A stretch of 62,360 nt of DNA from Pseudomonadota bacterium (GCA_039714155.1 JBDLJX010000004.1:1-62360); one strand, 5' to 3'; shown: positions 2,091-62,178, numbered from the stretch's first letter. Translations and numbers: made by a program. The notes: a model not told the origin generated them from the letters alone.

Positions 2091-2100
2091 TCTATGTAAT

Positions 2101-2133: not shown

Positions 2134-2146
2134 AACGACTGCGATA

Positions 2147-3052: not shown

Positions 3053-3377
3053 AACCTTCTCGAAGAGAAACCCGTATTGGAAAACAGGCTCATTAATAAA
3101 CTGGTGAGACTATAAAATATTTTTGGGCAGGACTCCATCTATACAAGTCCTGTTTATGACACTTCAGGTGTAGTGTAACTGCAAACAAGAGAATCGTTGA
3201 ACATGTAACATGTTGTTTTATATATATTATGGTAACAATGACGGTATTTGCCGATCGGCTCAAATGCAGCTTGTTGATCTGGATAGATTATCCTTGAGAA
3301 CCCGCATTGATCGGTACACTTGATGAATAGTTGTATTGATTCTGGAATGCACCGCTGGTGAGGTTCTGGCTCAGTCT

Positions 3378-3474
3378 TGTGGGAGCGCCGTCGCCTACAG
3401 GGATGTAGGTGAGGGGCGTGAGCAGGACGCGGAAGCTTCCCCGGCGCGAATCGCGGCGAGACGCCGCTCTTACA
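3378..3474. repeat. REP doublet interrupted by a second small hairpin repeat
   Basis: Outer arms TGTGGGAGCGCCGTC / GACGCCGCTCTTACA; inner GCCTACAGGGATGTAGGT...CAGGACGC unit. Confidence 0.55.
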
Positions 3475-3614
3475 GTAAGAGTTTTTGAATGATTGGGTAA
3501 AATTCACATTCCAGAAACGTGGGTTCTTACTTCTTGTTTCAAATTAATTTCTTGAAACACCGAGTGTCACTCTGGTGAAGTCCAGGGCAGTCAGGAACTG
3601 CGACATATTACTGC

Positions 3615-3631
3615 TGCGACAATCTGTCGCA
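3615..3631. promoter_or_regulatory. Putative RegA/PrrA-type binding box
   Basis: TGCGACA ATC TGTCGCA palindrome plus an extra TGCGAC half-site at 3599; matches the GCG(A/G)C-N5-GTCGC style RegA/RegR box; regAB-like genes lie just downstream. Confidence 0.55.
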
Positions 3632-3702
3632 TTGTTGCAAATGGCTGACAGACAGTAACATCCTGCTGGCAGATTGCATGACAAAAACAAGGGTCAAACA
3701 GG

Positions 3703-4734
3703 ATGAAAAAGTCTACGCTTGCCGCCATCACGGCAACATTATCCCTGTCCATCAGTGCTACCGGTGCAGCCATTGCCGGTCATGACCATCATTCAGGACA
3801 TGTTCATGAGGATCTTGCACCAATCGGTGTCATGGGAGCGCACACCCACGAGTCAGGCGACTGGATGTTCTCCTACCGCTACATGCACATGGACATGCAA
3901 GGTAACCGCGAAGGCACCAGTGGCATCAGTGATTCCGATGTTTTGAAGAAATACGCCGTCACACCGACTGACATGAGCATGGACATGCACATGTTCGGTG
4001 TCATGTATGCCCCCACCGATCAGCTGACCCTGATGGCCATGCTGCCCTACCTCGACAAGAGCATGGACCACCGTACCCGCATGGGGGTCAAGTTCAATAC
4101 CGGATCGAATGGCATCGGCGACCTGAAGCTGAGCGGTATCTATAACGCAAAACGCTGGGGCCGCAACGAACTGCTACTGAACCTGGGTATCAGCCTACCG
4201 ACCGGTTCCACCGACGAGGAAGACAGTACACCCATCGGTAAAGTCCGCCTGCCCTACCCGATGCAGCTGGGTTCCGGCACGTATGACCTGATGCCGGGCG
4301 TAACTTACAATGGCCAGAACGACGTATACTCCTGGGGCGGCCAGACCACGGCAACGCTGCGCATGAACCGGAATAACGGGTACCGCCACGGCCATCGCAT
4401 CGAGGCCACCGGCTGGGGTACAAAGAAGCTGTCTGACTGGTGGAGCATATCGGCGCGGGTAAAAGGCTCGGCATGGGGTGATATCCACGGCACCGACAGC
4501 CGCATTGCACAAACCAGTCCGATGGGTGTGCCGCTGGTGCCAACCGCGGACCCCGATACTCGTGGCGGCAAGAGCATTGACGGCCTGCTGGGGGTGAATT
4601 TCTACGCCCGCTCCGGCATGTTCAAGGGTCATCGCCTTGCGGTTGAACTCAGTAAGCCGGTGTACCAGGACCTGGATGGCCCTGCGCTCGAAACCAACTG
4701 GGCCATCATCGCCGGCTGGCAGCTGGTTATCTAG
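3703..4734 (+). CDS. Exported His/Met-rich outer-membrane beta-barrel-like protein (transporter / MetA-pathway family), putative metal uptake
   Basis: Signal peptide; GHDHHSGHVH; APIGVMGAHTH; MSMDMHMFGVMYAP; LPYPMQLGSGT; aromatic C-terminal strand. Confidence 0.7.
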   Translation: MKKSTLAAITATLSLSISATGAAIAGHDHHSGHVHEDLAPIGVMGAHTHESGDWMFSYRYMHMDMQGNREGTSGISDSDVLKKYAVTPTDMSMDMHMFGVMYAPTDQLTLMAMLPYLDKSMDHRTRMGVKFNTGSNGIGDLKLSGIYNAKRWGRNELLLNLGISLPTGSTDEEDSTPIGKVRLPYPMQLGSGTYDLMPGVTYNGQNDVYSWGGQTTATLRMNRNNGYRHGHRIEATGWGTKKLSDWWSISARVKGSAWGDIHGTDSRIAQTSPMGVPLVPTADPDTRGGKSIDGLLGVNFYARSGMFKGHRLAVELSKPVYQDLDGPALETNWAIIAGWQLVI

Positions 4735-4884
4735 TACTCTTTCAACCTGAAAAAGACAGAATATTATTGCCACGGAATCCACGGAAAAACACGGAAGAAT
4801 AAAAACCTTAAAAACATTTTTCCGTGTCCTTTCGTGGATTCCGTGGCTATTCTATCCGTTATTATCAGGTTGAAGGAATACTAG
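4731..4884. mobile_element. MITE with 20-bp TIRs and CTAG ends, carrying an internal palindrome
   Basis: CTAGTACTCTTTCAACCTGA ... TCAGGTTGAAGGAATACTAG (18/20 match); inner GCCACGGAATCCACGGAA / TTCGTGGATTCCGTGGC at 4769-4847. Confidence 0.7.
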
Positions 4885-35464: not shown

Positions 35465-35567
35465 AGCGGAAGGATCGTAGGATATGGGTCATTGCACGAT
35501 CAAATTTTCCGTAATATTGTCTGATAACAATCACATACGGTTCGTTTGAATAATTGCACCATACGGG
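35465..35567 (-). mobile_element. IS end remnant (family 2)
   Basis: About 100 bp similar to 61510-61613, ending TGCACCATACGGG. Confidence 0.7.
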
Positions 35568-46300: not shown

Positions 46301-47495
46301 TGTGCTGTGGCGAATTCGTAATTGTGACCTGAAAACGCTAACTTAGACAGTCTTGTTCCTGAAAGCAATCGCCCCTACCCTGCTCTGCCATGAAGGATCT
46401 GCTGGTACTCCTCGCCCATCTATTAACCACGATCGCCAAGCTCCTGGGACCCGGTGGCGCGAGGGCCATCGTCGCTGACAGTCTCATATTGAAGCAACAA
46501 CTCCTGGTCATCAATCGCTCTCGGCGACGCGCGCCCAATCTCTCGGCACTTGATCGATTCCTATTCGGCTTCTGGTCGCTATTTCAACCCACGCCACATT
46601 AAGCGGGCTGCCGTGATTATTCGGCCTTCTACGCTATTGAAATTTCACGACCTGCTCAAGAAACGAAAGTACCGACTGCTGTATTCATCTGGCAGTAAAG
46701 GAAAACCCGGTCCCAAGGGACCATCGCGGGAACTCATCCAGGCCATCGTTGAACTGGAACGACGCAATCCACGGTTCGGATGCCCACGGATCGCACAGCA
46801 GATCAACAAAACGTTCGGAATCGACATCGATAAAGATGTGGTGCGGCGTGTCCTCGCCGCACATTACCGACCTGGTTCCGGTGACGATGGGCCCTCATGG
46901 CTAACATTCCTCGGGCACACAAAGGACAGCCTCTGGAGTATTGATCTGTTTCGGCGTGAATCCATTCTGTTGAAGAGCCACCGGGTGCTCGTCATCATGG
47001 ATCAGTTCACTCGGCGCGTTATCGGCTTTGGCGTCCACTCTGGAGATGTTGATGGTGTCGCCTTGTGTCGAATGTTCAACAAGGCTCTCACATATCAGGG
47101 TATTCCACACTATCTCAGCTCTGACAATGACCCACTATTCCAATATCACCGATGGCAGGCAAATCTTCGCATCCTGGATATCAAAGAGATTAAGTCCGTT
47201 CCCTGCATACCGTTATCGCATCCGTTCATCGAACGACTGATCGGGACTATTCGCCGCGAATACCTTAACCATGCACTCTTCTGGAACGCCCGCGACCTGG
47301 AGAGAAAACTGGAAGAATTTCGACAGTATTACAACGCTTATCGTGTGCACACTTCGCTCAACGGCGATACACCCTCAGAAATCACCGGCGAAACCATCAT
47401 CCACCTTGCTGACCTCAACCAATTCCGATGGAAATCTTATTGCCACGGACTATACCACTTACCCGTAGCGGCCTAAGCATCAATTCGCCACACAC
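46301..47495 (+). mobile_element. Near full-length IS (family 1) with an rve integrase-core transposase
   Basis: TIRs TGTGCTGTGGCGAATT / AATTCGCCACACAC; about 1.2 kb. Confidence 0.85.
46390..47476 (+). pseudogene. Frameshifted integrase-core transposase
   Basis: ORF 46390-46602 continues in another frame (NPRHIKRAA...) near 46585; DDE-like WSIDLF, SSDND, FIERLIGTIRRE, YYN. Confidence 0.8.
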
Positions 47496-49590: not shown

Positions 49591-51939
49591 ATGAGGCTGC
49601 GCACCCGCCTCCTAGCCACACAGGTTCCAGCCATGCTGTTGCTGTTTCTGGCATTGTTCGCGCTCGCCTTCAACACCAGCAGGAGTATCCTGGCAGAGCA
49701 GATCCAGCGTGAAAGCAGAGCACTGGCACGAGCCCATGCCGGCGAATTCGATCTGCTGTTCCAGACCGCGCAAACTGTGGCCCAAGGCCTCGCACTAGCC
49801 GTAGCTAATGACTCGGAGCTGGACCCGGTCCGTATCGAGAAACGCATCCGCAACACCTTGGAGCAGTACCGCTTTATCTATGGCTCAACCGTCGCCCTTA
49901 TCCCCGAAGCCACCGAGCTGAGAAGTTTCGCGCCCTACCTGTACCGCGAGCCGGAAGGAATCCGTTCCACCTCGCTGGCCACGGCGGACTACGATTATCC
50001 GCACTGGGACTGGTTCCGCACCCCACTGGAACAGAATAGTGCGACCTGGGGCGAGCCCTATTTCGACAAGGGCGGCGGTAATATCCTGATGGTTACCCAC
50101 TCCGCACCCATCCGCCGTCAGGGGCAAATCCTGGGGGTGGCCACAGTAGATATCTCTATCGCCGAGCTGGTGGATCAAATCCGGGCTCTGCGGGTGGCCG
50201 ACAGTGGTTACGCATTCCTGCTCACGGCAAGTGGTCGCCTGATTGCCCATCCCCGGCAGGGCCTGCTGTCGGAGCAGGACCTGAAGACAATGATCAAGGC
50301 TTCTGACGACGGTAATCTGAGGATGCTGGAAAGGCTAACGGCCGACAGCGGTGATGAGCTTGCGATGTTCACTGATCCGTTTTTAGGCCAGCCAAGCTGG
50401 GTAGTAAGCAGTCGCATAGAGGCCACCGGCGCCACCCTGCTTATCGTCCTGCCGCTGCAGGAGATCATGCGTCCCGTGACCCGGCTCAAACAAAAGATGT
50501 TACTGGCTGCGGTGCTGATTATAGCGATTACCCTGACAATCATCCTGGCCCTGTCTGCCAACATCACGGCACCCCTGACCCGGCTGGTGGGACAAGCGGA
50601 GCATTTCGCCGCGGGACGCCTGGACCGGCGTTTGCCCGAGGATACAGGCCCAGTGGAGACTCGCCACCTGGCACATGCTTTCAATAACATGGGCGCAGCT
50701 ATACAGCGGAACATCGAGGAAGTGCGTAGCGCCACCGCAGAAAAAGAGCGCTATCACAAAGAGCTTCAAATCGCCGCCGAGATTCAGAAGGGGATCCTGC
50801 CGCATCGTTTTCCCCCGTTCGCCGACCTGGAGGCCCGACTGGATCTTGCGGGCCTCACACGGCCGGCCCGTGAGGTGGGGGGCGATTACTACGATTTTTT
50901 CCGTTTGTCCCGCGACCGTATCGGCATTGTGGTCGCCGATGTCTCCGATAAGGGTGCTGCGGCCGCCCTGTTCATGGCCATTACCCACACCCTGGTGCGC
51001 GAGGTGGCCCAACGCCGGGTTCCCCCGGCCGAGGTGCTGAGGCGCATCAATCGTACATTGGCCAACGAAAATCCCTCCGCCATGTTTGTCACCCTGGTGT
51101 ATGGCGAATACCACTCGGATACAGGCCATCTGCGACTTGTCAATGCTGGCCACAATCCGCCCCTGCTACTCCGCGCCGACGGTGGCATGCAGATCGTGAT
51201 GGCCAAGCCCAGACTGCCGCTGGGCGCCATGCCGGACACCCGCTATGAAACCCTGGAACTGCGGTTGGAACCCGGCGACAGCATCCTGCTGTACTCGGAC
51301 GGTATTACCGAGGCCTGCAATTCGGAGCAGGAAGAGTGGGGCCTCGGCCGGTTGCAGAAAGTTCTGGGAAAGCTTCAGGGAGATATGCGGACGGTTGCCC
51401 ATGAATTACTGGCACGGGTCGATGCCTTTCGCGGTAACGCCGAGCAGCACGACGACATCACCCTGTTATTGCTGCAACGCCAGCCTGCAGACTCGCCGGC
51501 CGCCGACAAGGCCGAGCATGTCCGCAGCGTACGCATGGAGTGGCCGGCCCGCACTGAAATACTGGCTAAGGTGGCCGCCTTGGTCGAAGCCATGGCCCGG
51601 GACGCTGGCTTCGACGAGCGGGAGGCAGGCCGTCTGGTGCTGGCCGTCGACGAGGTGGTCAGTAATGTGATCCGACACGGCGATGGGAAGGAAAACCGTT
51701 TCGCCATGGAGCTTACCCCGCTAGATGGGGGGCTGGAGGTCACAGTAATCGACTGGGGCGAGCCGTTCGACTTCGAGGCCAAGTCCCATACATACAGCGG
51801 GACGGTGTCATTGGATCATGAGCCCGGCGGCATCGGCCTGTATCTCGCGTGCCAGTCGGTGGATGAGGTTCGCTATACCCCGAACGCCTTGGATGGCAAC
51901 CATCTTACGCTAGTGAAGTACCTAAGTGCCTTATCCTGA
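49591..51939 (+). CDS. dCache-HAMP-SpoIIE (PP2C) phosphatase fused to an RsbW-like HATPase kinase
   Basis: TM-dCache (WDWF, WGEPYFD, MVT, TVD)-TM-HAMP; EVGGDYYD, ADVSDKG, NAGHNPP, YSDGITEA, QHDDIT; AVDEVVSNVIRHG, DWGEPFD, GGIGLYL. Confidence 0.92.
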   Translation: MRLRTRLLATQVPAMLLLFLALFALAFNTSRSILAEQIQRESRALARAHAGEFDLLFQTAQTVAQGLALAVANDSELDPVRIEKRIRNTLEQYRFIYGSTVALIPEATELRSFAPYLYREPEGIRSTSLATADYDYPHWDWFRTPLEQNSATWGEPYFDKGGGNILMVTHSAPIRRQGQILGVATVDISIAELVDQIRALRVADSGYAFLLTASGRLIAHPRQGLLSEQDLKTMIKASDDGNLRMLERLTADSGDELAMFTDPFLGQPSWVVSSRIEATGATLLIVLPLQEIMRPVTRLKQKMLLAAVLIIAITLTIILALSANITAPLTRLVGQAEHFAAGRLDRRLPEDTGPVETRHLAHAFNNMGAAIQRNIEEVRSATAEKERYHKELQIAAEIQKGILPHRFPPFADLEARLDLAGLTRPAREVGGDYYDFFRLSRDRIGIVVADVSDKGAAAALFMAITHTLVREVAQRRVPPAEVLRRINRTLANENPSAMFVTLVYGEYHSDTGHLRLVNAGHNPPLLLRADGGMQIVMAKPRLPLGAMPDTRYETLELRLEPGDSILLYSDGITEACNSEQEEWGLGRLQKVLGKLQGDMRTVAHELLARVDAFRGNAEQHDDITLLLLQRQPADSPAADKAEHVRSVRMEWPARTEILAKVAALVEAMARDAGFDEREAGRLVLAVDEVVSNVIRHGDGKENRFAMELTPLDGGLEVTVIDWGEPFDFEAKSHTYSGTVSLDHEPGGIGLYLACQSVDEVRYTPNALDGNHLTLVKYLSALS

Positions 51940-52098
51940 ATCCGGTATAGTAGCCCCGCTGAAATCTGTAAGGTTCCAGATGCGACTGGTTAGACAGGGA
52001 GTTGAGTTGCCAAACTTTAAACAGGCAACTGACTTTCTCGTACCTTTAATTAGTGCCCGGCGTTTGGTGTAAACGCCGTAAATTAAGAGGAAAGTAAC

Positions 52099-52953
52099 AT
52101 GACTGCCATAACCAACGGCACTGTTTCCATTGCACCCTCCTTGAGCGACCGCGAATATGCCGAGTGTTTCGATACGTTTAGGCAGATCTCAACCGAATGG
52201 AAATCGACACAGAAGTGGCTGAGTGACGATCTCCTTCCCCAGCGTGCCTGGTCAGATCCTCTGAACATTCTGAGTATCGGCAGTGGCACCGGAGATTTCG
52301 ATTTGCAGCTTATGAAGCTCATCCTGAAGCGCTGGCGTATCGGGTCCTATATCGCAATCGATCCCAATCCCGATCATAATCAAATATTCACAACCAGATT
52401 CCGGGAGAGCGGCCTGACGGTTTCCAATTTCGAAATACTCTCTCAGACCTTCCCAGTCCAGCATCTCGATATGAAATTTGATCTTGTCCATATGACGCAT
52501 TGTCTTTACTACATACCGGACCGGCTCAAGGCCATTCAAGCTGCCCTCGATATCCTGAACAATCAGGGTCTTATTTTAGTCTTTCACCAGACCCCTTTGG
52601 GCATCAACGAAATTCAACGGCGATTTTTAAAACGTGCCAAGGGCAACGAAAGTGAAATGTATTCTTCCAAGGACATCTATCGGTTGCTGGAATCACTTCC
52701 TGCCACTTTTGCATTTGACATTATTGATGGAATACTGGATGTGTCGGATTTAGTCGCACCGCAGTCTCTTCGGGGAAAGCAGCTTCTGAACTTTTTTCTG
52801 GAATGCCGTGCAGATTTGTTACCACCGGAATTCAAGGAAGAGGTTGTAGATTTCATCAAAGGGTTAGCGTTTACTGAAAACAACCGCCAAGTCATATTCC
52901 ACCCTGTCGGGGTTTTCTGTATATCGCGCAATCCCAACCAAGCTGCGATATAG
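52099..52953 (+). CDS. Class I SAM methyltransferase, histamine-N-methyltransferase-like
   Basis: ILSIGSGTGDFD; AIDPN; FDLVHMTHCLYY, resembling HNMT LSIGGGAGEID and DFIHMIQMLYY. Confidence 0.8.
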   Translation: MTAITNGTVSIAPSLSDREYAECFDTFRQISTEWKSTQKWLSDDLLPQRAWSDPLNILSIGSGTGDFDLQLMKLILKRWRIGSYIAIDPNPDHNQIFTTRFRESGLTVSNFEILSQTFPVQHLDMKFDLVHMTHCLYYIPDRLKAIQAALDILNNQGLILVFHQTPLGINEIQRRFLKRAKGNESEMYSSKDIYRLLESLPATFAFDIIDGILDVSDLVAPQSLRGKQLLNFFLECRADLLPPEFKEEVVDFIKGLAFTENNRQVIFHPVGVFCISRNPNQAAI

Positions 52954-53019
52954 ATAACAGATCCCCAAAGCGATGGAACTGAATTCCCATTAACAACTAA
53001 TGTCTCCTGCGTGATGGTC

Positions 53020-53637
53020 TTACGCTGGTTTGCTTACCGTAATCCACAGGAACACCTCGCCACTAATATTCCGATAGTCCCGGGCTTCAATGTCAAAGCC
53101 CAGCCGTTCCAAATCAATATATAGTTTTTCCGGGCTTTTATGGCTGTAATACAGCTCCTGCCCCAAGAATTCCTTATACCCATCGAATTCCAGCTTGCCC
53201 GTGTACTCCTGGGTTGCATAGGTGAATAATACTTTTCCATTCGGCCGCAACCAGTCGAATATTTTCCTGAACAAGGCTGCATGATCATCTCGGGGGACAT
53301 GGAACAGGGCATAGATCATGGTGACCGCATCAAATTGGCCCGGTTCGAATTCGATATCGCGCATATCGGCATAGATGGTATCCATGTTCGGAACGTATCT
53401 GGCCGCCAAATCGAGCATCCGTTGCGAAAAATCTATGCCCGTGACCGACCAGCCCCGATTTATGAAGGTAGCAGCAAACGGTTCGCCTGCCCCGCAACCC
53501 AGGTCGAGCACTCTTCCCTTTATTATGTCGAAACGCTGGTAAAAAGCGTTAAACACCTCCGTCATATCGAAGATACCGCGGCTCTCCTCATAGGTGTCAG
53601 CAAATTCATCATAGATGCGGGCAAGGGATTTTTTCAT
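53020..53637 (-). CDS. Class I SAM-dependent methyltransferase
   Basis: VLDLGCGAG; GIDFS; FDAV...ALFHVPR; LRPNG. Confidence 0.9.
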   Translation of the reverse strand: MKKSLARIYDEFADTYEESRGIFDMTEVFNAFYQRFDIIKGRVLDLGCGAGEPFAATFINRGWSVTGIDFSQRMLDLAARYVPNMDTIYADMRDIEFEPGQFDAVTMIYALFHVPRDDHAALFRKIFDWLRPNGKVLFTYATQEYTGKLEFDGYKEFLGQELYYSHKSPEKLYIDLERLGFDIEARDYRNISGEVFLWITVSKPA

Positions 53638-53860
53638 GGATGAGTGAACATTTAACTGATTATAAGTTGCTGGAAAGCATCCTGTTCAGAGACTCCTTGC
53701 CTAAGTGGCCACCGGAAAGATCGACCGGAAGCGGTTGAAGGTTTGGTAATCATTCGTTAACCTTTCCCTTTCACGGTCTTCCGTCTGACTATGCCGCAGC
53801 GCATACAGACAAACTCGGCCCCTCACGGTTGCCGATCCCGGTCTGCCCCTGTCCGGATGG

Positions 53861-54178
53861 CTATGCCGGTTCGTCGCTAACAATGGTGAACAGATCCGAG
53901 AATCCCGAAAGATCCAATACTTCTTTCACGTTCTCCTGCGGAGAGCGCAATCGCATGTCGCCCGCCTTGGCCCGCACTTCCTTCAGGATTATCAGCAGTA
54001 CCCTCAGACCAGCGCTGCTCAGATACTGAATCCCGTGCATATCCAGGTCCAGCCACACGGTACCTTGAGCGAGTTGCTGCCGGAAAGCGGCATCCAGTTC
54101 CGGTGCAGTATGGCTATCCACACGACCCGCCACGCTGAGGATGGTCCATTTTCCTTCTGTCCTGTCATGAATCTGCAT
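53861..54178 (-). CDS. STAS-domain anti-sigma-factor antagonist (RsbV/SpoIIAA-like)
   Basis: GRVDSHTAPEL; YLSSAGLRVL phosphoacceptor motif; VKEVLDLSGF; GGAG RBS. Confidence 0.9.
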   Translation of the reverse strand: MQIHDRTEGKWTILSVAGRVDSHTAPELDAAFRQQLAQGTVWLDLDMHGIQYLSSAGLRVLLIILKEVRAKAGDMRLRSPQENVKEVLDLSGFSDLFTIVSDEPA

Positions 54179-54263
54179 ATGTCTACTCCGACGGTTGAAA
54201 TCTTGCAATACCCACGAAATTATACTGCCACCTTCTACAGCCGGGAAAGAGTTGCGCACGCTG

Positions 54264-54440
54264 CTATGGCTCATACAGTCCGGCACCGACGATCATTTCT
54301 TCGCCGTCCACCTGAACTCTCCGAATGTAGGCCAGCTTCCGCACCTGGTCGGCGTATCCCGGCCTGGCCCAGTAGTATTCTACCCAGGCACTCTGGCCAT
54401 TTTGCGTCTTACAGAAGGCCCATGATAGATGTACTGCCTC
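54264..54440 (-). pseudogene. C-terminal fragment of a Cache_2 domain protein
   Basis: Minus strand reads GQSAWVEYYWARPG...RKLAYIRRVQVDGEEMIVGAGLYEP*; no in-frame start; not in the ORF track. Confidence 0.65.
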
Positions 54441-54647
54441 AATGGCTTGCTTAAGGTGGAAGATAATTCAAAAACCAAAAACGCATCAGCAAGATTTTGG
54501 TGATTGATAATAGTTATTATTTGTCACTGTTCTTGCCTCTATAATATAATTCCAGAGTGCAATTGTTTCTGTTATCGTAATCCAAACCAGGCACTGACTT
54601 AAGTGTCTTTAAATGGTTAACAAACAATCTCTTTGTCCCCATTAATT

Positions 54648-55829
54648 ATGACTTTTATTACTGATATCGTTTCCACAAACGTTCACGAAGCCCACATCTC
54701 AGCTATCAAAGGCATGGCCATATTAAGCGCCAGGGTAGAGGGGGCCGCATCGCTCACCTGGGGGCTACCGTCTTTTCGTACACCGGAATATATTCGCCGG
54801 GGTGTCAAACAGTATCTTGATGAAGATCTCGATGCTGGCAAATATACCTTACCCGACGGTCTGCCTGAACTACGTGAACTGGTCGTGGCAAAACACAAAG
54901 CAAAGACTGGTATTGATGTTGACGCGGATGAGAATGTGATGATCAGTGCCGGCAATATGCAAGGTTTGAACACACTGTTTCATACCATGCTTGATCCGAG
55001 CGATGAGATCATCCTGACCGACCCGTGTTTTGCATCACACATCCAGCAGATTAATTTATTCTCGGGTAAGCCGATTTACTGGCCGCTGGATGAAAACAAT
55101 AACTGGTCTCTGGATATAGATTTATTGCCAGATTTAATTACTGACAAAACGCAGGCCATAGTTCTTGTTAGTCCATCAAACCCTACGGGAAAAATATTTT
55201 CCGAAGATGAACTGATCCGTGTCGGTGAGATCGCCAAGCGACACAATATACTGATTATTATCGATGACCCGTATAGTGTCTTCGTTTACGACAACAGGAA
55301 TAAATATTTTAATCTCGCCAGCGTTGAGGAATTTAAAGAGCACATTGTTTATTTGTATTCATTTTCAAAATCTTATGCCATGAGCGGTTGGCGATTGGCC
55401 TATATGGTAATGCCTGCCGAATTGAAACGTGAAGCGCTCAAAGTACACGATGCAACAATGATTTGTGCGCCGCGCATTTCCCAGTTGGCGGGTATTGTTG
55501 CATTGAGTCAGCCCTCTGATCATAAACAGGAATTTGAAACAATTCTGAATAGTCGCAGAGAACTAATCTGCCAAAGACTCGACGATATACCGCATGTTTT
55601 TGCCAATCAAAAACCTGAAGGGGCGTATTATATTTTTCCAAAAATAATTGCAGCCCACACAAATTCGGAAAAATTTGCAATAGATTTACTAAACAATGCC
55701 AGAGTTACGGTCACACCAGGCAGTGCTTTTGGACCTTCAGGTGAACATCATGTGAGGATGGCATACTGCGTTGATGAAGATACGATCAATCTGGCGTTTG
55801 ACCGAATCGAAAAACATTTCAAAGGCTGA
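54648..55829 (+). CDS. PLP-dependent class I/II aminotransferase
   Basis: YTLPDGLPELRE; SPSNPTG; DDPY; SFSKSYAMSGWRLAY; TPGSAFG; visibly AT-richer. Confidence 0.92.
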   Translation: MTFITDIVSTNVHEAHISAIKGMAILSARVEGAASLTWGLPSFRTPEYIRRGVKQYLDEDLDAGKYTLPDGLPELRELVVAKHKAKTGIDVDADENVMISAGNMQGLNTLFHTMLDPSDEIILTDPCFASHIQQINLFSGKPIYWPLDENNNWSLDIDLLPDLITDKTQAIVLVSPSNPTGKIFSEDELIRVGEIAKRHNILIIIDDPYSVFVYDNRNKYFNLASVEEFKEHIVYLYSFSKSYAMSGWRLAYMVMPAELKREALKVHDATMICAPRISQLAGIVALSQPSDHKQEFETILNSRRELICQRLDDIPHVFANQKPEGAYYIFPKIIAAHTNSEKFAIDLLNNARVTVTPGSAFGPSGEHHVRMAYCVDEDTINLAFDRIEKHFKG

Positions 55830-56044
55830 TTGCTAGAAAATTATATGAGCAATCTATAAGTCTGCTCCGACCCGACCCAGAAGTTCAGCGCCTTGGATCG
55901 AATGTCTGGAAGGCAGCACCAGAGCGCGAACCCGGCAAGGCAGGTAAGGATGGCGGCAGCGACTTAACTAACCAGAGGCACATCCAGGAGATGTCTTCAG
56001 AGCAGGCGCCATGCCCGCAACATTCACTTACCAGGAGAGCAACA

Positions 56045-56266
56045 ATGACCAATCGGCATCACCAACGCGCAGACAAAGTGGTAGCGGAGTTCAAGAATAT
56101 TATTGGCGAATCGATATGTAACCAGATCCAAAGCGCTCACTTTCAGGACCTTACCCTGCTGGTACGCGACTTGATTACCGACGACCTGCTTGTCGCGGCT
56201 GAACTGATCGATAAGGTGGCCCAGCAGCTACGGAGTGAGTCCGATTTACACGAAATGGAACTCTAG
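56045..56266 (+). CDS. Small hypothetical protein
   Basis: AGGAG RBS, 73 aa, helical pattern. Confidence 0.55.
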   Translation: MTNRHHQRADKVVAEFKNIIGESICNQIQSAHFQDLTLLVRDLITDDLLVAAELIDKVAQQLRSESDLHEMEL

Positions 56267-56462
56267 CTTCCGAAGGGCTCAGGCCTGATTGGCTTGATTG
56301 GTATAGCTAGACGCAAGAAAGCGGCGTAATCATTAAATCAGCAGCAACAGAGTCGGCAGCTTAGGTCGCCGTCTTGTGTTTTCGTGAATTGCTACTACGG
56401 CCGAAAGTACGCGTTTAGCTGACAGAACTGGCCAGGCCGTGTCGAACGCGTGCAATCGACCC

Positions 56463-56865
56463 TGTGGGTGGCGAATTCATAATTATTAACTGAAAACGAT
56501 AACCTAGACAGTCTTGTTCCTGAAAGCAACCGCCCCTACCCTTCTCTGCCATGAAGTATCTGCTGGTACTCCTCGTACATCTACTTACCACAGTCGCCAA
56601 ACTCCTGGGGCCCGGCGGTGCGAGAGCTGTCGTCGCTGACAGCCTCTGGAGCATTTATCTGTTTCGCTATGAATCCATTCTGCTGAAGACCCACTGGGTA
56701 CTCATCATCATGGATCAGTTTACTCGGCGCATCATCGGCTTTGGCGTCCATGCTGGCGATACCGATGGTATCGCCCTGTGCCACATGTTCAACAAAGCCA
56801 TTTCTACCCAATGTGTTCCATACTACCTCAGTTCTGACAATGACCCGCTATTCCGGTACCACTCT
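56463..56865 (+). mobile_element. Truncated, internally deleted IS family 1 copy
   Basis: Left TIR TGTGGGTGGCGAATT; N-terminus MKYLLVLL fused directly at ADSLWSI to the integrase core; stops at DPLFRYH. Confidence 0.82.
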
Positions 56866-56962
56866 ATGCGTGACTCGTGAGTCGACTTATCGTGTTGACC
56901 ACCAGTCTCCTGCCGTGACACACTAATGACTCAACCGACCGACCATCAACTGCGCGAACTCG

Positions 56963-58162
56963 ATGTCTCTATACGACGAAGTGTATGGGCGAGAGCCCAG
57001 CCAACCCGTATCCTCGAGCCAGCGCGGTGCTGGCCTCGGCCTGTCGGGTGGTGGATTCCGCGCCATGTTGTTCCACGTGGGAGCACTCCGGCGCCTGTTC
57101 GAGGCCGACGCACTGCGCGACCTCTCGCGCATCACCAGTGTGTCGGGCGGGTCGATCACGGCCGCGCAGTTGGCCCTGCACTGGGATACACTGACCGCGC
57201 ACCCGGGAGATCTCACGCGCTGGAAGGCCCTCGTCGAAGCGCCGCTGTTCGAGTTCGCGGGCAAGCGGCTCGACGCCCTGGCGATCGGCGCCGGGTGGGT
57301 CCGGCCACGGCGCGGCGCCGCGGACGGCGTTGCGGATGCCTACGACAAGCTATTCGGTGGCGCTACGCTCCAGAGCCTCCCTACGGATCCGCGCTTCGTC
57401 ATCCTCGCCACCAACCTCGGCACCGGCTCGCTCGTACGCTTCGCCGCGAAGTACACTGCCGATCAGCGGGTCGGGCGAAACCAGGGACTGGACATCCGAC
57501 TCGCTGATGCGGTGGCCGCGTCCTCCGCCTTCCCACCGATACTCTCTCCGAAAGTGATCCGTCTCGCAGACCAGGAGGCGTTGACGGATTCCTTCCCGGG
57601 CGACCAGCCACCCCTGCAGCGCAAGCCCTGGACCCACCGCCTCGAGCTCACCGACGGCGGCGTCTACGATAACCTCGGCCTCCAGCCTCTCGAGAAGTAC
57701 CACACTATTCTGGCGAGCGACGGCGGCGGCCCCTTCGCGTTCAAGGAGCGCGTTGCGAAGAACTACCTCCAGCACATGATTCGCGCCTGGGTGGTCACCG
57801 ACAACCAGGTCCGTAGCCTGAGGCGCTCCAACCTCGTCTCCGAATACCGGGTCGATACCCGCCTCGGCACCTACTGGGGCATCAATACGCAGATCGCGAA
57901 GTACTCGAAGCAACGCATCGACGTCGACCCGAGCTGGATCGAGGAGCTCTCATCGGTTCCGACCCGCCTCTGGCACATGCCGGAACGCGTGCGCAGACGC
58001 CTGATCAACTGGGGCTACGCAGTCTGCGACGCGGCGTTTCGAAGCTACGTGGATAGCAACCTGCCCGACCCAGCCGGGCTGCCATACCCGGGCGACCCTC
58101 TGTCGGCACCGGTTCCAGAGCAATCGCTGTGGCGGCGGATCTTGAGACTGGATCCCGCATGA
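56963..58162 (+). CDS. Patatin-like phospholipase
   Basis: LSGGGFRAMLFHVG; nucleophile SVSGGS; AASSAFPP; TDGGVYDNLG. Confidence 0.92.
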   Translation: MSLYDEVYGREPSQPVSSSQRGAGLGLSGGGFRAMLFHVGALRRLFEADALRDLSRITSVSGGSITAAQLALHWDTLTAHPGDLTRWKALVEAPLFEFAGKRLDALAIGAGWVRPRRGAADGVADAYDKLFGGATLQSLPTDPRFVILATNLGTGSLVRFAAKYTADQRVGRNQGLDIRLADAVAASSAFPPILSPKVIRLADQEALTDSFPGDQPPLQRKPWTHRLELTDGGVYDNLGLQPLEKYHTILASDGGGPFAFKERVAKNYLQHMIRAWVVTDNQVRSLRRSNLVSEYRVDTRLGTYWGINTQIAKYSKQRIDVDPSWIEELSSVPTRLWHMPERVRRRLINWGYAVCDAAFRSYVDSNLPDPAGLPYPGDPLSAPVPEQSLWRRILRLDPA

Positions 58163-58199
58163 CACCTCCCAACACGGGTGAGGAAACGAGGGAGAAATC

Positions 58200-60005
58200 A
58201 TGAAGCGAGCAACCTTCGACGAGGTGTTCTTCGGAGAAATCGACGAGGTATTCTTCGGCCGCGACCGGCAGCTTCGCTTCGCGGTCGAGTGCCCGGTCAA
58301 GTACGAGGTCTGGCTCGCCTACGCGCAAGGGGAGACCGATCGCCTCGACCTGATCTTCGAGTCCAGCGAGGATACGGAGCCCAAGGAGGTCGCGGCGAAG
58401 TTCGTCGAGCTGCTCACGCAGGCGGAATTCAATGTTGCCGACGCCAAGATCGCGGTCACGGGCGACTTCGTCGCCACCGAGATCGACTTCAAAGAACTCG
58501 TCGCCTGTGTGCTGCCCCTGACCTCCATGCGTGAGATCGTCCACATCGCGGCCGACATGTCCATCGACGCCCTGCGCTCGCTCATCCAGGGCGAACGAAT
58601 CCCGGACCAGGACTACCTGCCGGAATCCACGCCGCGGCAGCGAAGGCGCGAGGTCGCCGATCGACTGGTGTGGTTCGTACGCCTGCTGGCAGCCGTGAGC
58701 GATAAGGCGGCGAACACTGGTCGCGACCAGGTACAAGTCGACACGGTCGCAGAACACCTGATCAACATCCTGCATCGGGTCCAGAGACCAATGACGACCA
58801 CAAGCCAAACCGTCTGGCAACAGAAGAGCTACAACGCCGAGCCACCGCCGATCGAGGCCGACGAGCCGATGCGGCTCATCGAACGGGTGACCAAGAACCG
58901 AGAAGCGTCGGTGGCCGTCACTCGGTCTCGAACCACGATCAAGGCCGACGCGGTGCAGCGCCTGTTCGAATCGAGCTGTAAGAACATCGCCTGGGCGATC
59001 GTCGACAGCGGCATCGACGCGACACACCCTGCCTTCCAGGAGCCACCCGGTCCGCCGGCCCTTCCTGAGGCGAGTCAGTCACGTATCCGCGCGACCTACG
59101 ACTTCACTCGGGTGAGGGAAGCGCTCTCATTGGTCACGGGAGGGGAGCTGGACGGGCGCGTCAGCTCCGGGGGCGAGGTCAACTGGTCGAAGATCATCGA
59201 GGAGGGCATCCGCGTCGAACACAACGCCAGTTATCGAAAGCCGAAGTCCGACCACGGCACCCACGTCGCCGGCATTCTCGGCGCCAAATGGCCCGAGCGC
59301 GACCTGCAGGGCATTTGCCCCGATATCGGGCTCTATGACTTCCGTGTGCTCGGAGACAACGGTCGCGGAGACGAGTTCTCGATCGTGGCTGCCCTCCAGT
59401 TCATCCGCTGGATCAACGAGCGTGCGCGCCGCACCGTCATCGCAGGGGTGAACCTGAGCTTCTCCATCCCCCACGACGTCGCCAACTACTCGTGCGGGTG
59501 GACCCCCGTCTGTGCGGAAGCCGATCGACTGGTCCGCTCGGGCGTCGTCGTCGTCGCGGCCGCTGGCAACAGCGGCTACATGGGAGCCGCCCATGCGACG
59601 GGAACCGAGTACCACAACATCAGCGTGACGGATCCCGGTAACACGGACCGTGTGATCACCGTCGGCTCGACCCATCGCACCGACCCCCACCGCCACGGAG
59701 TGAGCTTCTTCTCGGGGCGCGGCCCCACGGCCGACGGCCGCCTCAAGCCCGACCTGGTGGCGCCGGGCGAAGCGATCGACGGGCCGATTCCCGGGGAGGA
59801 GATCCGCACCATGGACGGCACGAGCCAGGCGGCACCCCACGTGAGCGGCGCCGCAGCCCTACTGATGGCTCGCTATCGAGAGCTCATCGGTGCACCAGAG
59901 CGCGTCAAGGAGCTACTGGTCAGCTCCGCGACCGACTTGGCCCGCGACCCGACCTTCCAGGGCTCCGGTGTCGTCGACGTGCTAAGGGCAATGCAATCAC
60001 TATAA
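58200..60005 (+). CDS. Cytoplasmic S8 (subtilisin-like) serine protease with an uncharacterised N-terminal domain of about 250 aa
   Basis: IVDSGID (Asp), HGTHVAG (His), AAGNSG (oxyanion Asn), GTSQAAPHVSG (Ser); no signal peptide. Confidence 0.93.
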   Translation: MKRATFDEVFFGEIDEVFFGRDRQLRFAVECPVKYEVWLAYAQGETDRLDLIFESSEDTEPKEVAAKFVELLTQAEFNVADAKIAVTGDFVATEIDFKELVACVLPLTSMREIVHIAADMSIDALRSLIQGERIPDQDYLPESTPRQRRREVADRLVWFVRLLAAVSDKAANTGRDQVQVDTVAEHLINILHRVQRPMTTTSQTVWQQKSYNAEPPPIEADEPMRLIERVTKNREASVAVTRSRTTIKADAVQRLFESSCKNIAWAIVDSGIDATHPAFQEPPGPPALPEASQSRIRATYDFTRVREALSLVTGGELDGRVSSGGEVNWSKIIEEGIRVEHNASYRKPKSDHGTHVAGILGAKWPERDLQGICPDIGLYDFRVLGDNGRGDEFSIVAALQFIRWINERARRTVIAGVNLSFSIPHDVANYSCGWTPVCAEADRLVRSGVVVVAAAGNSGYMGAAHATGTEYHNISVTDPGNTDRVITVGSTHRTDPHRHGVSFFSGRGPTADGRLKPDLVAPGEAIDGPIPGEEIRTMDGTSQAAPHVSGAAALLMARYRELIGAPERVKELLVSSATDLARDPTFQGSGVVDVLRAMQSL

Positions 60006-60017
60006 AGGGAGAGCGCC

Positions 60018-61115
60018 ATGCCTGAGTTCATCCTCGACGCTGTAGAAGCACGCTTCGGTGACTGCATTCTGATCCGCTGGGGCGACGACCTGAGCAAGAT
60101 CATGCTCATCGACGGCGGACCGAGCAGCGTCTACGAGGACCGGCTCGAGCCAGTGATCGACGAGATCCGCGGGGAACTCGGCGTCTCTGCGGACGCCTCC
60201 CTGGACCTCGAGCTCGCCGCGGTGAGCCATATCGACGGTGATCACGTGCTCGGAATCGAGCAGCTACTGAAGGCCATCAAGGACGCGCGCAACGATCAGC
60301 TCGCCGAGAAGGTCCGAATCAAGAAGTTCTGGCTCAACAACTTCGACGACATCCTCACGGGCGGAGGAGCAACGCCCTCTGCGGTGCTCGCGTCGTTGGG
60401 GACCCACGCACCGCCCACACTCGTGGGCGAGGTGGCGGCAGTGCTCGCGAGTGTTCCCCAGGGCCGCCGCACCCGCGATCTCGCGCGCGGCTTGCAGCTG
60501 CCCGGGAACATGGCGGCCGGGCAGCTTGTCAAGAGCGGCGATACGCTGGCCCTGCCCGACGACATGGACATCACGGTCGTCGCACCCGCGAGTGACGAGC
60601 TGGACGCCCTCCAGGATCTCTGGGTCAACACCCCGGTCGCCGATCGGGCGACTATCGCTGCAAACATCGATCCGTCGATCCCGAATCTGTCGAGCATCGT
60701 GATGCTCCTGAATCGCAACGGCGCTACCGCGCTACTCACGGGCGACGCACGCGGAGATCTGATCCGGAAGGCACTAGCCAGTGCAGGCCTTCTCGATGCG
60801 GAGGGAAAGCTCCACGTGAACGTGCTCAAGCTGCAGCACCACGGCAGCAAGAACAACATGATCCCCGAGTTCTTCGAGAAGATCACCGCCGACCACTACG
60901 TCATCTCAGCGAACGGCCACCACCACCACCCGTCGACGGATACCCTCCAGGCGATCGTCGATGCGCGGGGGAACAACGCGTACGCGATTCATCTTACGAA
61001 CGACGTGCCCCACGCTACGACGCTCCTGAACGACGCAGCCGCACAGCTGGGTCGGAACTTCACCGTCCATATACGCGCCACCAACGACCACAAGATCCGA
61101 ATCGCAGTCGGTTAG
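60018..61115 (+). CDS. MBL-fold metallo-hydrolase (ComEC/Avs1a-like)
   Basis: FGDCILI; LIDGG; SHIDGDHVLG; NLSSIV; LLTGDA; KLQHHGS; ISANG..HHP. Confidence 0.88.
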   Translation: MPEFILDAVEARFGDCILIRWGDDLSKIMLIDGGPSSVYEDRLEPVIDEIRGELGVSADASLDLELAAVSHIDGDHVLGIEQLLKAIKDARNDQLAEKVRIKKFWLNNFDDILTGGGATPSAVLASLGTHAPPTLVGEVAAVLASVPQGRRTRDLARGLQLPGNMAAGQLVKSGDTLALPDDMDITVVAPASDELDALQDLWVNTPVADRATIAANIDPSIPNLSSIVMLLNRNGATALLTGDARGDLIRKALASAGLLDAEGKLHVNVLKLQHHGSKNNMIPEFFEKITADHYVISANGHHHHPSTDTLQAIVDARGNNAYAIHLTNDVPHATTLLNDAAAQLGRNFTVHIRATNDHKIRIAVG

Positions 61116-61202
61116 CGGGTGTAGGTTACACATAATTTACCGCTATGTAGTAACGCCATGCTCGATTTTGACTGGGCTTGGCCTTTGCGCCTGGCGGTAC
61201 AA

Positions 61203-61613
61203 TCATTTGATGCAAACCTGAGTGGAAATTGGCATACTGCGGATATCTTCTTCCCCATAGGTCCACTTCTTCGCGATGAGCTTACGGTGCCAGGCAAGCA
61301 AGGTATCCGGAGTAACAAGCGTTTCGAGTTCATCAAGCAACCGGCGACCAAGGACTTTGGCTTTCACGGCCAGTCGTATCCGCTGTTCGTCGGTGAACCG
61401 AAGCCACTGCCCTTCGAGCTGATCCTTGAGAACACGGTTCTCTTCTATAAGATAGTCGATGACCCCCTGTTGGTGGCGGTTAAGCCAGCCGGCCAGGGCA
61501 ATTATGAGGAGGTGGAAGGGTTGTATGACAGGGGCCATTGCGCGAACAGATTATCCGTAATATTGCCTGATAACAATATCATACGGTTCGTTCGAATATT
61601 TGCACCATACGGG
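61203..61613 (-). mobile_element. IS family 2 remnant: terminal sequence plus truncated transposase N-terminus
   Basis: ORF 61203-61538 (AGWLNRHQQ..IDYLIEENRVL...VTPDTLLAWHRKL) is the N-terminus of an integrase-type transposase; end matches 35465-35567. Confidence 0.78.
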
Positions 61614-61908
61614 CTCTGTTTTATCGAGCAAGAGAACGAAGCTAACAAGGAAAATCCAGCCACCGCCTAAAGGCCCCGCATAATCCTTCCTCTGCTTATT
61701 GCTGCCGATGACTCTGTGATTGGGTAGTTACGCAGAATTATTTACAGATTCTGACCTGTTATGGCTCCTCGACACCGGGACATTGCTACTTTGATGACAC
61801 GCAGTGTTATGTGCTTCATCTTTCATGATGTGTCTCCACAAGAAACACTGCCAGTGTCGATGCAGCCCATCAACGATGGGCTCCAACAGAGTCCGGGCTG
61901 AACAGTTA

Positions 61909-62178
61909 CTAGTGTGGTGTAACGAATAACGTGCACATATCAGAGGCCCACAAATGACCCAAGACAAGGCGCAGCCTGCAGTTAATGGCTATTCCCTTAA
62001 CAAAGGCTGCAACGCAGTATTGGGTCATTTGTGGGCCTCCCTCCGGGCGAGACGAGAAGCCGTCATCTGCGGTGTTGCGTCTCTTGTAAAGGGCACGCCA
62101 TTCCCTGCGAGACGCGCCTTGCAGCTAACGGCTTCTCGTCTCGCTGATACGTACACGTTATTCGTTACACCACACTAG
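61909..62178. mobile_element. MITE with about 35-bp TIRs, CTAG ends and two internal hairpins
   Basis: CTAGTGTGGTGTAACGAATAACGTGCACATATCAG / CTGATACGTACACGTTATTCGTTACACCACACTAG; inner stems GAGGCCCACAAATGACCCAA and GCGAGACGAGAAGCCG. Confidence 0.8.

Follow-up and report, generated by a model that had tools for sequence, protein, structure and literature searches.

The window, a 62,360-nucleotide stretch from a Pseudomonadota bacterium (GCA_039714155.1 JBDLJX010000004.1:1-62360), is a whole contig, and a block of three genes encoding a patatin, an S8 subtilase and an MBL-fold hydrolase lies near its right end, which is reached 1.2 kb past the MBL gene (Table 1). The first-pass annotation had described three co-oriented genes with gaps of 37 and 12 nt and with GGGAGA ribosome-binding sites. 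The ORF coordinates and both gaps were exact, and all three genes are on the plus strand. The claim of GGGAGA sites was true for two of the three genes, because sequence inspection located such sites ending 4 to 5 nt ahead of the S8 and MBL start codons but found neither a promoter nor a GGGAGA-like site upstream of the patatin ATG. The further claims that the catalytic motifs were intact and that signal peptides were absent were borne out: key residues of all three proteins fell on invariant or nearly invariant alignment columns, and none of the proteins had a signal-peptide-like or TM-like hydrophobic stretch as judged by Kyte-Doolittle hydropathy only (maxima of the 19-residue mean across the three proteins, 1.07 to 1.50).

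The block had also been described as richer in GC than its neighbours and as bracketed by IS remnants. Its GC content was 0.647 compared to 0.555 for the remaining contig (GC3 of the block genes, 0.81 to 0.82), and it is the GC maximum of the contig, with 4.15-kb windows elsewhere never above 0.627. The bracketing was confirmed upstream, where two segments of a degenerate element were 81 to 88% identical to parts of an intact IS (46307-47149); the segments are contiguous at the locus and separated by ∼440 bp in the intact IS, and the remnant ORF (56551-56880) gave a weak rve match (E 0.01). This rve-type IS is intact at 46307-47476 and has many further copies in the genome. Downstream the bracketing was only approximate and consisted of a repeated-element fragment, 89% identical to G000:C20:15145-15377 and partly matching window positions 35468-35567, and a MITE-like element with 94% complementary inverted repeats, which is present in three full copies (98% identity) and in many partial ones located at contig ends. 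An ORF overlapping the repeat fragment (61203-61538, minus strand) had no significant family in the family search. The GC content and IS sequences are signs of recent horizontal acquisition of the three-gene block.

Table 1. Features of the three-gene block and its flanks (window coordinates)
Feature	Coordinates	Strand	Basis
Degenerate rve-family IS copy, internally deleted, left boundary of GC-rich block	56460..56862	+	DNA identity
Patatin gene	56963..58162	+	ORF, 399 aa
Shine-Dalgarno-like GGGAGA before S8 gene	58190..58195	+	Sequence inspection
S8 protease gene	58200..60005	+	ORF, 601 aa
S8 N-terminal region, residues 1-225	58200..58874	+	Predicted structure, structural alignments
S8 catalytic domain	58875..60005	+	PF00082, 4e-43 over residues 263-585
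Shine-Dalgarno-like GGGAGA before MBL gene	60007..60012	+	Sequence inspection
MBL hydrolase gene	60018..61115	+	ORF, 365 aa
MBL insertion 1, candidate gating loop, residues ∼111-145	60348..60452	+	Low pLDDT, variable length
MBL insertion 2, candidate gating loop, residues ∼201-225	60618..60692	+	Low pLDDT, conserved motif
Repeated-element fragment, right flank	61380..61612		DNA identity
MITE-like element, 270 bp, 35-nt terminal inverted repeats	61909..62178		Repeats and copies

The S8 protein matched the PADLOC model 'subtilase' (4e-40), and its catalytic triad and Asn residues (D269, H352, N457 and S542) were on invariant columns across 23 homologues. The N-terminal region had zero Pfam matches even at E ≤ 10, and no recognisable sensor domain was present in the protease or in the module. 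In the predicted structure this region comprised a prodomain-like alpha/beta part (residues ∼30-115), a helical insert (∼120-195) and a disordered linker (198-222). Residues 31-170 had a pLDDT of 81 to 93, in a model that was of moderate quality as a whole (pLDDT, 67.8) and in which stretch 455-523 of the catalytic domain was poorly modelled. Structural alignments to subtilase pro-forms (pro-subtilisin E, 3whi_B, Z 26.9; Tk-SP; PCSK9; EpiP; CspA/CspC; and fervidolysin) started at model residues 19-50, whereas alignments to mature-only subtilases started at 235-257. Because it aligns with the pro-forms, the N-terminal region suggests a self-inhibitory prodomain, a reading based on alignment ranges and not on a separately folded domain. 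Thus, the protease, which stands alone without a fused sensor and has a prodomain-like inhibitor, may be a zymogen in its own right. A partial match to the NCBIfam model CspBA was also obtained. The clostridial Csp germination proteases and the intracellular pro-subtilisins are similar to the S8 protein in being subtilases that retain the prodomain, and CspB activates another zymogen, pro-SleC. However, Csp proteases serve spore germination rather than defence, and the S8 protein differs from both groups in a ∼110-residue stretch with the helical insert that parts the prodomain-like region from the catalytic domain.

The match of the MBL protein to Pfam Lactamase_B (1.5e-4; 22.2 bits) was slightly below the 22.7 cut-off. 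Motif residues H71, D73, D75, H76, D243, H274 and H275 were on invariant columns, with the metal-binding residues kept. Among PADLOC models, the MBL protein matched LmuA (PDLC03854) over its full length at 1.7e-45, Avs1a at 2e-30 and RTasMBL at 1.4e-29; NCBIfam Avs1a gave 1e-39 with a score of 136.3 versus a cut-off of 420. The top PDB match of the MBL model (pLDDT, 88.6) in Foldseek was the ComEC beta-lactamase-like domain 9ic4 (E 1.8e-13). The model points to a ComEC-like nuclease fold and a putative gated pro-nuclease.

Approximately 80 additional residues are present between two ComEC-alignable blocks of the MBL protein. Mean pLDDT in insertion 1, taken by tens over residues 111-150, was 65, 52, 57 and 78, with the remaining model otherwise above 90; the insertion varies in length among homologues and has a semi-conserved L-[SA]-A-[SA] at 120-123. 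The corresponding values for insertion 2 (residues 201-230) were 71, 54 and 80. In 76 of 89 sequences, position 216 of its conserved motif, A214-A215-[F/Y]216-x-D218, is F or Y; the aromatic is replaced by Asn in the protein here, a point against the mechanism proposed below. The conserved motifs of the two insertions are ∼95 residues apart, and mapped MBL cleavage sites are ∼100 apart in VcMBL (I133/I233), HamM (I118/I218) and EpiAvs1a (I134/I234) (Tuck 2025; Evans 2025). By analogy, the two extra loops sit where trypsin-like or caspase proteases cut related MBL zymogens and are candidate gates.

Many database records name homologues of the MBL protein ComEC/Rec2 competence protein. The protein at this locus is not one: it has the MBL domain only, in 365 aa, with no TM stretch, and its score with the ComEC/Rec2 equivalog TIGR00361 was 28.3 versus a cut-off of 190.

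The patatin gene product matched PF01734 (8e-19). G29-G31/R33 of the GGG(F/Y)R motif were nearly invariant, and S61 (SVSGGS) and D231 (DGG) were on invariant or nearly invariant columns; no PADLOC or NCBIfam model matched at E ≤ 0.01.

Across related loci the S8-MBL pair is a conserved core. The MBL gene lay immediately 3' of the S8 gene in 59 of the 61 assessable loci of a pooled non-redundant set and in 51/52 assessable metagenome loci, which were chosen by S8 sequence alone, and an S8 gene was immediately upstream of MBL in all six plasmid records inspected. The patatin, in contrast, is accessory and has been repeatedly gained or lost. Of 86 loci, 31 had a lipase gene within 400 nt of the pair (patatin, 27; Tle1-like/DUF2235, 4), on one side or the other and for the most part in the same orientation. 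Of the 33 loci that could be read on both flanks, 23 had no patatin, and the loci that have one were scattered over the MBL tree without clustering (16 changes for 17 rows); the core function can therefore do without the patatin. Conservation of the trio thus held for the pair but not for the patatin.

Several relatives are surrounded by defence genes. Locus L006 has TIR, ThsB-TIR, HEPN and Tle1-like genes nearby, L010 an IetAS-like pair, CHAT, a transposase and a relaxase, and L011 TIR-NACHT-TPR; other related loci have SIR2, FRG, deaminase and Vsr genes. There are also conjugative plasmids on which the module has cyclase-E2-TIR or SIR2/NERD neighbours. The expectation of a defence-island setting was thus supported by relatives beside TIR, SIR2 and IetAS-like genes but not by the block itself, since a family scan of the flanking ORFs detected no defence genes among its immediate neighbours in this genome.

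The first-pass annotation had noted that cyclase, AAA/STAND ATPase and gasdermin were absent, and none had a family match in the neighbouring ORFs; small unannotated ORFs (55991-56266 and 61158-61670) are present on the flanks, where the gasdermin family had no match. The comparisons that it had drawn with IetAS and CBASS CapV did not hold up. No AAA ATPase is adjacent, NCBIfam IetS (listed IteS) scored 19.8, far under the cut-off of 900, and PADLOC IetS gave only partial matches (1.6e-10); there is no cyclase in the window neighbourhood for CBASS, and the patatin is without a PADLOC match. The block is also not AVAST type 1 (Avs1), with no NTPase or trypsin domain in neighbouring ORFs and an Avs1a score below the cut-off. 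An SMC-like gene (as LmuB of Lamassu would be) was not seen in the family scans of neighbours here, where the contig ends 1.2 kb downstream, or in related loci.

The view that the block matches no named system has to be revised, since MBLs associated with S8 subtilisin-like proteases already appear as 'clade 3' among the protease-associated MBLs (Evans 2025; bioRxiv 10.1101/2025.11.14.688446). In the accessible portion of that report, clade 3 is named only, and the experiments cover clade 1. The likeness is a ComEC-like MBL adjoining a separate S8 gene, two MBL insertions, and a wide, sparse spread that includes actinomycetes; at this locus the MBL gene is 12 nt from the protease gene and its partner is an S8 with an intact triad. 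The locus differs in the attached patatin and, among relatives, in a recurring, interchangeable lipase slot; neither lipase partners nor a prodomain of the S8 proteases come up in the main text, as far as accessible.

Cleavage activates those MBL zymogens whose partner is a trypsin-like or a caspase protease (Tuck 2025, PMC12799240; Evans 2025). The trypsin-MBL modules of Avs1/Avs2/Avs4, Hachiman (HamMAB), Lamassu and DRT have a two-loop MBL pro-nuclease with loops ∼100 residues apart and a protease partner, and they end in abortive infection. Their trypsin-like protease is fused to a sensor (STAND, HamA, LmuA or RT), the nuclease gene is upstream and cleavage is after Ile, whereas the locus here has a stand-alone S8 with a prodomain-like N terminus, a downstream nuclease gene and no sensor domain. 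Canu (CanABC) of Klebsiella aerogenes resembles the block in having a stand-alone protease gene followed by MBL and a variable third of three genes. However, its protease is a caspase-family member with an Ig-like domain, and CanB, which is not a lipase, is in a soluble complex with the caspase (PMC12799240); with an S8 rather than a caspase partner, the block is not Canu. LcHydrolase-LcCaspase is a precedent for a lipase-like hydrolase as a protease-licensed death effector, but LcHydrolase is an alpha/beta-hydrolase with a fold unlike patatin, a caspase partner and no MBL in its operon (Evans 2025). The earlier idea that the protease frees a latent MBL nuclease and that the S8 N terminus is autoinhibitory fits the 2025 MBL zymogens, the synteny and the fold, and is supported in part.

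A protease together with a predicted latent DNA-cutting enzyme and a membrane-attacking lipase is therefore most likely a suicide-type anti-virus system, of a class recognised only recently. By analogy, the block is probably a cytoplasmic abortive-infection defence of the protease-associated MBL kind, in an S8 version with an optional phospholipase. Judging from its fold, the S8 protein would be made with its own prodomain-like N-terminal region and be held inactive until an infection-linked signal lifts the inhibition. Active S8 would then cut the two inserted MBL loops, converting the zymogen to a metal-dependent DNase, and the freed DNase would destroy cellular and phage DNA, aborting the infection, as in the trypsin- and caspase-paired MBLs. 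Attributing cleavage, nuclease activity and phage defence to S8-MBL pairs is an extrapolation from these other protease classes. The least certain step is that of the patatin, which could be a second, plug-in executioner on membrane lipids, either licensed by the protease or acting alongside it; that it is an S8 substrate is purely conjectural.

A less likely, though plausible, reading is that the S8-MBL pair works as proposed and that the patatin is not a protease substrate but an independent companion effector or a co-transferred defence-island neighbour. The many losses and gains described above favour this possibility, as do the lack of a ribosome-binding site like those of the S8 and MBL genes and the fact that in L195, whose MBL is closest on the tree, the patatin is only 26% identical and in another position. 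The patatin family is also much larger than the S8-MBL family (7,994 of 8,000 scored candidates were significant), and most of its members therefore act in other contexts; in addition, the accessible main text of Tuck 2025 (PMC12799240) and of Evans 2025 contains no patatin or phospholipase. However, in 25 of the 27 patatin-bearing loci the patatin gene is ≤400 nt away and on the same strand, and it is found on either side of the pair. The slot is filled in 4 loci by a non-homologous lipase (Tle1-like catalytic domain, PF09994), and Sinorhizobium meliloti M270 plasmid accessoryB has the identical gene order with gaps down to 4-12 nt. Taken together, strand, distance, slot swap and small gaps make mere neighbourhood hard to accept.

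Homologues are often found in bacteria that are multicellular or have a complex development (Streptomyces, Micromonospora and Dactylosporangium), and stress responses have been raised for another protease-effector module (Evans 2025), which could indicate that the module is not antiviral but a self-destruction, stress or developmental autolysis cassette of protease, DNase and lipase, or an intracellular turnover system. This seems unlikely given the sparse, patchy spread (0/60 relatives of the source genome and 3/401 Actinomycetota genomes), the carriage on conjugative plasmids and beside TIR, SIR2 and IetAS-like genes, and the anti-phage activity of every tested MBL-protease relative in the accessible portions of Tuck 2025 and Evans 2025. 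Protease, lipase and nuclease are also typical attack enzymes. Tle1-like lipases are T6SS effectors, and the Tle1-like domain in the lipase slot would suit exported degradative enzymes or interbacterial toxins, such as type VI secretion cargo. Such a role is very improbable: the three proteins are without signal-peptide-like or TM stretches, the neighbourhood scans turned up no VgrG, PAAR, Hcp or immunity-like genes, and the MBL protein matches MBL models of defence systems and not secreted nucleases.

The preferred reading of an S8-type abortive-infection module can be extended, tentatively, to a death cascade with two executioners, in which a pro-subtilase held by its prodomain and a helical 'bait' insert would license both a DNase and a phospholipase, with an exchangeable lipase socket occupied by patatin, DUF2235/Tle1-like proteins, or possibly TIR or FRG. 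If true, the cascade would be the prokaryotic equivalent of a caspase that switches on both CAD and a membrane-killing effector, and the patatin would be the first shown to be under proteolytic rather than nucleotide-signal control. Questions that become testable are what triggers a module without a sensor, which features of the gating loops an S8 recognises, and whether a single protease arms two chemically different killers. That bacterial immunity widely uses proteolysis to license death effectors was recognised in 2025, and this locus and its relatives give the subtilisin branch a concrete, compact anatomy of a stand-alone S8, a candidate gated nuclease and, in about one-third of loci, a swappable phospholipase.

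The patatin, S8 protease, and MBL-fold protein genes were called at the coordinates claimed in the first-pass annotation, all on the forward strand, with intergenic gaps of 37 nt (patatin/S8) and 12 nt (S8/MBL). The GGGAGA ribosome-binding sites claimed for the block were found for S8 and MBL; the patatin gene has no GGGAGA. Pfam identified Patatin (8e-19) and Peptidase_S8 (4e-43) domains, and the Lactamase_B match of the MBL protein was borderline (22.2 bits versus a cut-off of 22.7). At E ≤ 10, Pfam gave no match for the C-terminal part of the patatin or the N-terminal region of the S8 protein. In homolog alignments of all three proteins, the catalytic residues named earlier fell at invariant or nearly invariant columns. 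The absence of signal peptides was likewise borne out, as none of the three proteins has a hydrophobic stretch fitting a signal peptide or membrane helix. Secreted enzymes were considered and rejected because export signals were not found in these proteins.

Features of the block and of the surrounding contig
Feature	Coordinates	Strand	Remark
Rve-family IS, intact	46307-47476		308-aa transposase ORF
Cache-HAMP-SpoIIE(PP2C)-HATPase_c_2 gene	49591-51939		large fusion protein
Low-GC stretch	52000-56000		GC 0.41-0.50
STAS-domain gene	53861-54286
Rve-type IS copy, truncated	56460-56862		upstream of patatin; ~440 bp lost internally
Patatin ORF	56963-58162	+	ORF call
GGGAGA of S8	58190-58195
S8 ORF	58200-60005	+	ORF call
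GGGAGA of MBL	60007-60012
MBL ORF	60018-61115	+	ORF call
MITE-like element	61909-62178		270 bp; 35-nt terminal inverted repeats, two internal hairpins

The block is GC-richer than its neighbors, as had been noticed (0.647 versus 0.555 for the remaining contig); all other 4.15-kb windows of the contig have a GC content of ≤0.627, and GC3 within the block is 0.81 to 0.82. Bracketing by IS remnants held on the upstream side, where a degenerate copy of the rve-type IS is present, one of many diverged copies genome-wide (74 to 90% identity), and approximately on the downstream side, where the repeat debris comprises the MITE-like element and a piece of a different repeated element. Three full copies of the MITE-like element (98% identity) are present in the genome, and contig ends carry dozens of partial ones; the element is therefore probably the cause of much of the assembly fragmentation. 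The window is itself an entire contig, which ends 1.2 kb past the MBL gene. A survey of 60 relatives of this genome (4 from its genus, 32 from its family, and 24 from its class) turned up no MBL gene, and among 401 sampled Actinomycetota genomes 3 had one. In combination, this distribution, the GC shift, and the repeat debris indicate recent horizontal acquisition of the block.

The neighbors of the block in this contig (methyltransferases, a STAS protein, an aminotransferase, and a SpoIIE-type phosphatase) are not defense genes. The low-GC stretch may be another foreign insert; it separates the block from the GC-richer SpoIIE/HAMP/Cache phosphatase gene and contains two SAM-methyltransferase genes, a class I/II aminotransferase gene, and the gene for the STAS-domain protein. 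The Cache-HAMP-SpoIIE fusion and the nearby STAS protein look like parts of a partner-switching signaling module.

The first-pass annotation had asked whether the trio is conserved across genomes; what is conserved is the S8-MBL pair. Full-length S8 homologs in metagenomes were 86, 83, and 61% identical, and many further homologs (44 to 53%) came mostly from Streptomyces, Dactylosporangium, Micromonospora, and Actinoplanes. Among 80 loci listed from species-representative genomes, a scan that was filled by generic S8 motifs and had no Streptomyces-type homologs among the matches listed, an MBL homolog was present at 10, always directly downstream of S8. These accounted for 10 of the 11 best S8 matches among those listed (L002 to L012; the exception was L004), and the other 69 loci matched in the S8 catalytic domain only, without MBL or patatin. 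A metagenome scan seeded on the S8 junction region only returned 80 loci, with MBL directly downstream in 51 of the 52 that could be assessed. The pooled set comprised 94 loci (the window, L002 to L012, L114 to L193, L195, and L196; the S8 paralogs L013 to L081 were excluded), and merging at ≥95% identity left 86 nonredundant loci, with the window not counted. Of the 61 of these that could be assessed, 59 had MBL next after S8; L004 and L137 did not. MBL homologs were also present in seven records of a plasmid collection, with S8 immediately upstream in all six inspected, and were absent from a phage collection at E ≤ 1e-10.

Matches in 8 of 151 Micromonosporaceae genomes were considered as further copies of the module and rejected, because all represent a different S8 subfamily (8/8 matched in the S8 catalytic domain only, with no MBL and no patatin); eight candidates were scored per genome, and the count is uninformative on the S8-MBL module. 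One locus (L197, G463:C15, 5774-8068) has an MBL homolog and a nearby distant patatin-like gene, and no S8 was found there with the S8 protein of the block (P0002) as the query; this MBL may have a protease of another class as its partner.

The patatin is optional. Of the 86 loci, 31 had a phospholipase gene within 400 nt of the pair. Patatin was upstream on the same strand in 20 loci, downstream of MBL on the same strand in 5, and on the opposite strand in 2; a Tle1-like/DUF2235 (PF09994) gene was downstream on the same strand in 3 loci and divergent upstream in 1. Of the 33 loci with ≥1 kb of readable sequence to each side, 10 had a lipase and 23 had none. The lipase label was scattered over a tree of 53 MBL proteins, on which patatin required 16 changes for 17 rows and showed no clustering relative to shuffled labels; of these changes, no fewer than 8 are imposed by branches with good support. 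Sister pairs on this tree differed in having patatin versus none or patatin versus a Tle1-like gene, and the nearest MBL relative of the window (L195) has a patatin that is 26% identical and downstream. Patatin appears to be missing from the pair's closest relative (S8, 86%; MBL, 88%; both matched to one 10,999-bp contig), and matches of a second relative (S8, 83%; patatin, 88%; both to one 4,644-bp contig) suggest that patatin is present, the co-location of the genes in these two relatives being deduced from matching record sizes only. Patatin is closely linked to the pair on the same strand, on one side or the other, and in some loci a nonhomologous lipase takes its slot; both points argue that it is a working part, and its frequent absence makes it optional. 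Patatin is thus an accessory gene in a lipase slot beside the pair. In one locus (L174, 3669-6364), a patatin gene downstream of the pair is apparently split by an rve-family transposase gene, with patatin fragments on both sides.

Among the plasmid records, the order patatin-S8-MBL was found between transposases on Sinorhizobium meliloti M270 plasmid accessoryB, patatin-hypothetical-S8-MBL on Paroceanicella profunda pD4M1C, and S8-MBL-DUF2235 in Miltoncostaea oceani. FRG-domain genes also recurred beside S8-MBL pairs and may likewise fill the accessory slot. They are upstream on the same strand in two Rhizobium plasmids (R. phaseoli pRphaR630c, L201, 2821-3924; R. leguminosarum p_2, L203, 2873-3973, with a hypothetical ORF between the FRG gene and S8); a further FRG match, in L155 (7924-9714), was weak (E 4.8e-6) and lies on the other strand. 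An adenylate/guanylate cyclase gene was located just upstream of S8-MBL in two unrelated loci (L198, Methylorubrum extorquens CM4 pCMU01, 1561-4807; L009, 4324-5592). On pCMU01, E2-domain and TIR-domain genes come next after the cyclase; these may constitute a separate nucleotide-signaling defense system or be an additional partner of the module. Immediately upstream of the pair in L010 (1925-7735) are an IetAS-like pair (AAA ATPase and a 759-aa S8), a CHAT-domain fragment, and a DUF1353 gene, and downstream are a transposase and a relaxase; this region looks like a protease-rich defense island on a mobile element.

The MBL protein matched the PADLOC profiles LmuA (1.7e-45, full length), Avs1a (2e-30), and RT-associated MBL (1.4e-29), and the NCBIfam Avs1a model at 1e-39, which is under the model cut-off. 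Its AlphaFold model (pLDDT, 88.6; pTM, 0.90) was confident except at residues ~111 to 145 and 201 to 225. The top PDB match of this model in Foldseek was the ComEC beta-lactamase-like domain (9ic4; E, 1.8e-13), and the ComEC profile aligned at its own positions 9 to 88 and 236 to 326, with ~80 extra residues between. A competence function, suggested by the database name ComEC/Rec2, was rejected because the protein lacks the competence domain and scored far under the cut-off. Across 89 MBL homologs, the two insertions, which are candidate gating loops, carry a semiconserved L-[SA]-A-[SA] at 120 to 123 (loop 1) and A-A-[F/Y]-x-D at 214 to 218 (loop 2), ~95 residues apart; the MBL of the window has Asn at the aromatic position of the latter.

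According to the main text of Tuck et al. (PMC12799240), the MBL pro-nucleases of Hachiman and AVAST have two gating loops at which fused trypsin-like proteases cleave them (HamM, I118/I218; EpiAvs1a, I134/I234), the Canu caspase likewise cuts its MBL pro-nuclease, and nuclease homologs occur with "other diverse" protease families that are not named there. In their main text, Evans et al. (bioRxiv 10.1101/2025.11.14.688446) divide protease-associated MBLs into three clades, trypsin, caspase, and S8 subtilisin-like, and report tests of clade 1 only, in which VcMBL cut at I133/I233 became a Zn-dependent dsDNase; they also show that a caspase activates a lipase-like alpha/beta-hydrolase zymogen. 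Neither "patatin" nor "phospholipase" is used there, and the words "patatin," "subtilisin," and "subtilase" are absent from the main text of Tuck et al.; the supplements or figures of either paper may already show S8-clade neighborhoods. Two modularity-screen papers, in the portions available, mention neither the trio nor subtilases.

The S8 protein matched a PADLOC profile called "subtilase" (PDLC03014; 4e-40). The model of the S8 protein was of middling confidence (67.8), with residues 31 to 170 well modeled. A structure search with the whole model was dominated by the catalytic domain. Alignments to pro-forms (unprocessed pro-subtilisin E [Z, 26.9], ProN-Tk-SP, PCSK9, EpiP, CspA/CspC, fervidolysin, and PfSUB1) started at residues 19 to 50 and spanned 296 to 328 residues, whereas those to mature-only subtilases started at 235 to 257 and spanned 206 to 259. 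An ESM Atlas search with residues 1 to 225 gave weak leads only (best, 0.87; CspB prodomain, 0.84). The difference in alignment starts points to a putative subtilisin-type prodomain at ~30 to 115, followed by a predicted helical insert, a disordered linker, and the catalytic domain.

The best-supported reading is that the genes form an abortive-infection module. Gene linkage, folds, loop insertions, the integrity of the active sites, and a context of mobile and defense genes are observations, while every biochemical step is one that we infer: an infection cue would free the pro-subtilase from self-inhibition, the freed S8 would cut both loops of the MBL zymogen, and the cut MBL would act as a DNase that destroys DNA. 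The interpretation in the first-pass annotation was right in outline and overstated in novelty, as the trio belongs to a clade already listed by Evans et al., of which it is a three-gene variant. We found no description in the literature of the patatin-S8-MBL trio or of the recurring, exchangeable lipase partner that the S8-MBL pair has.
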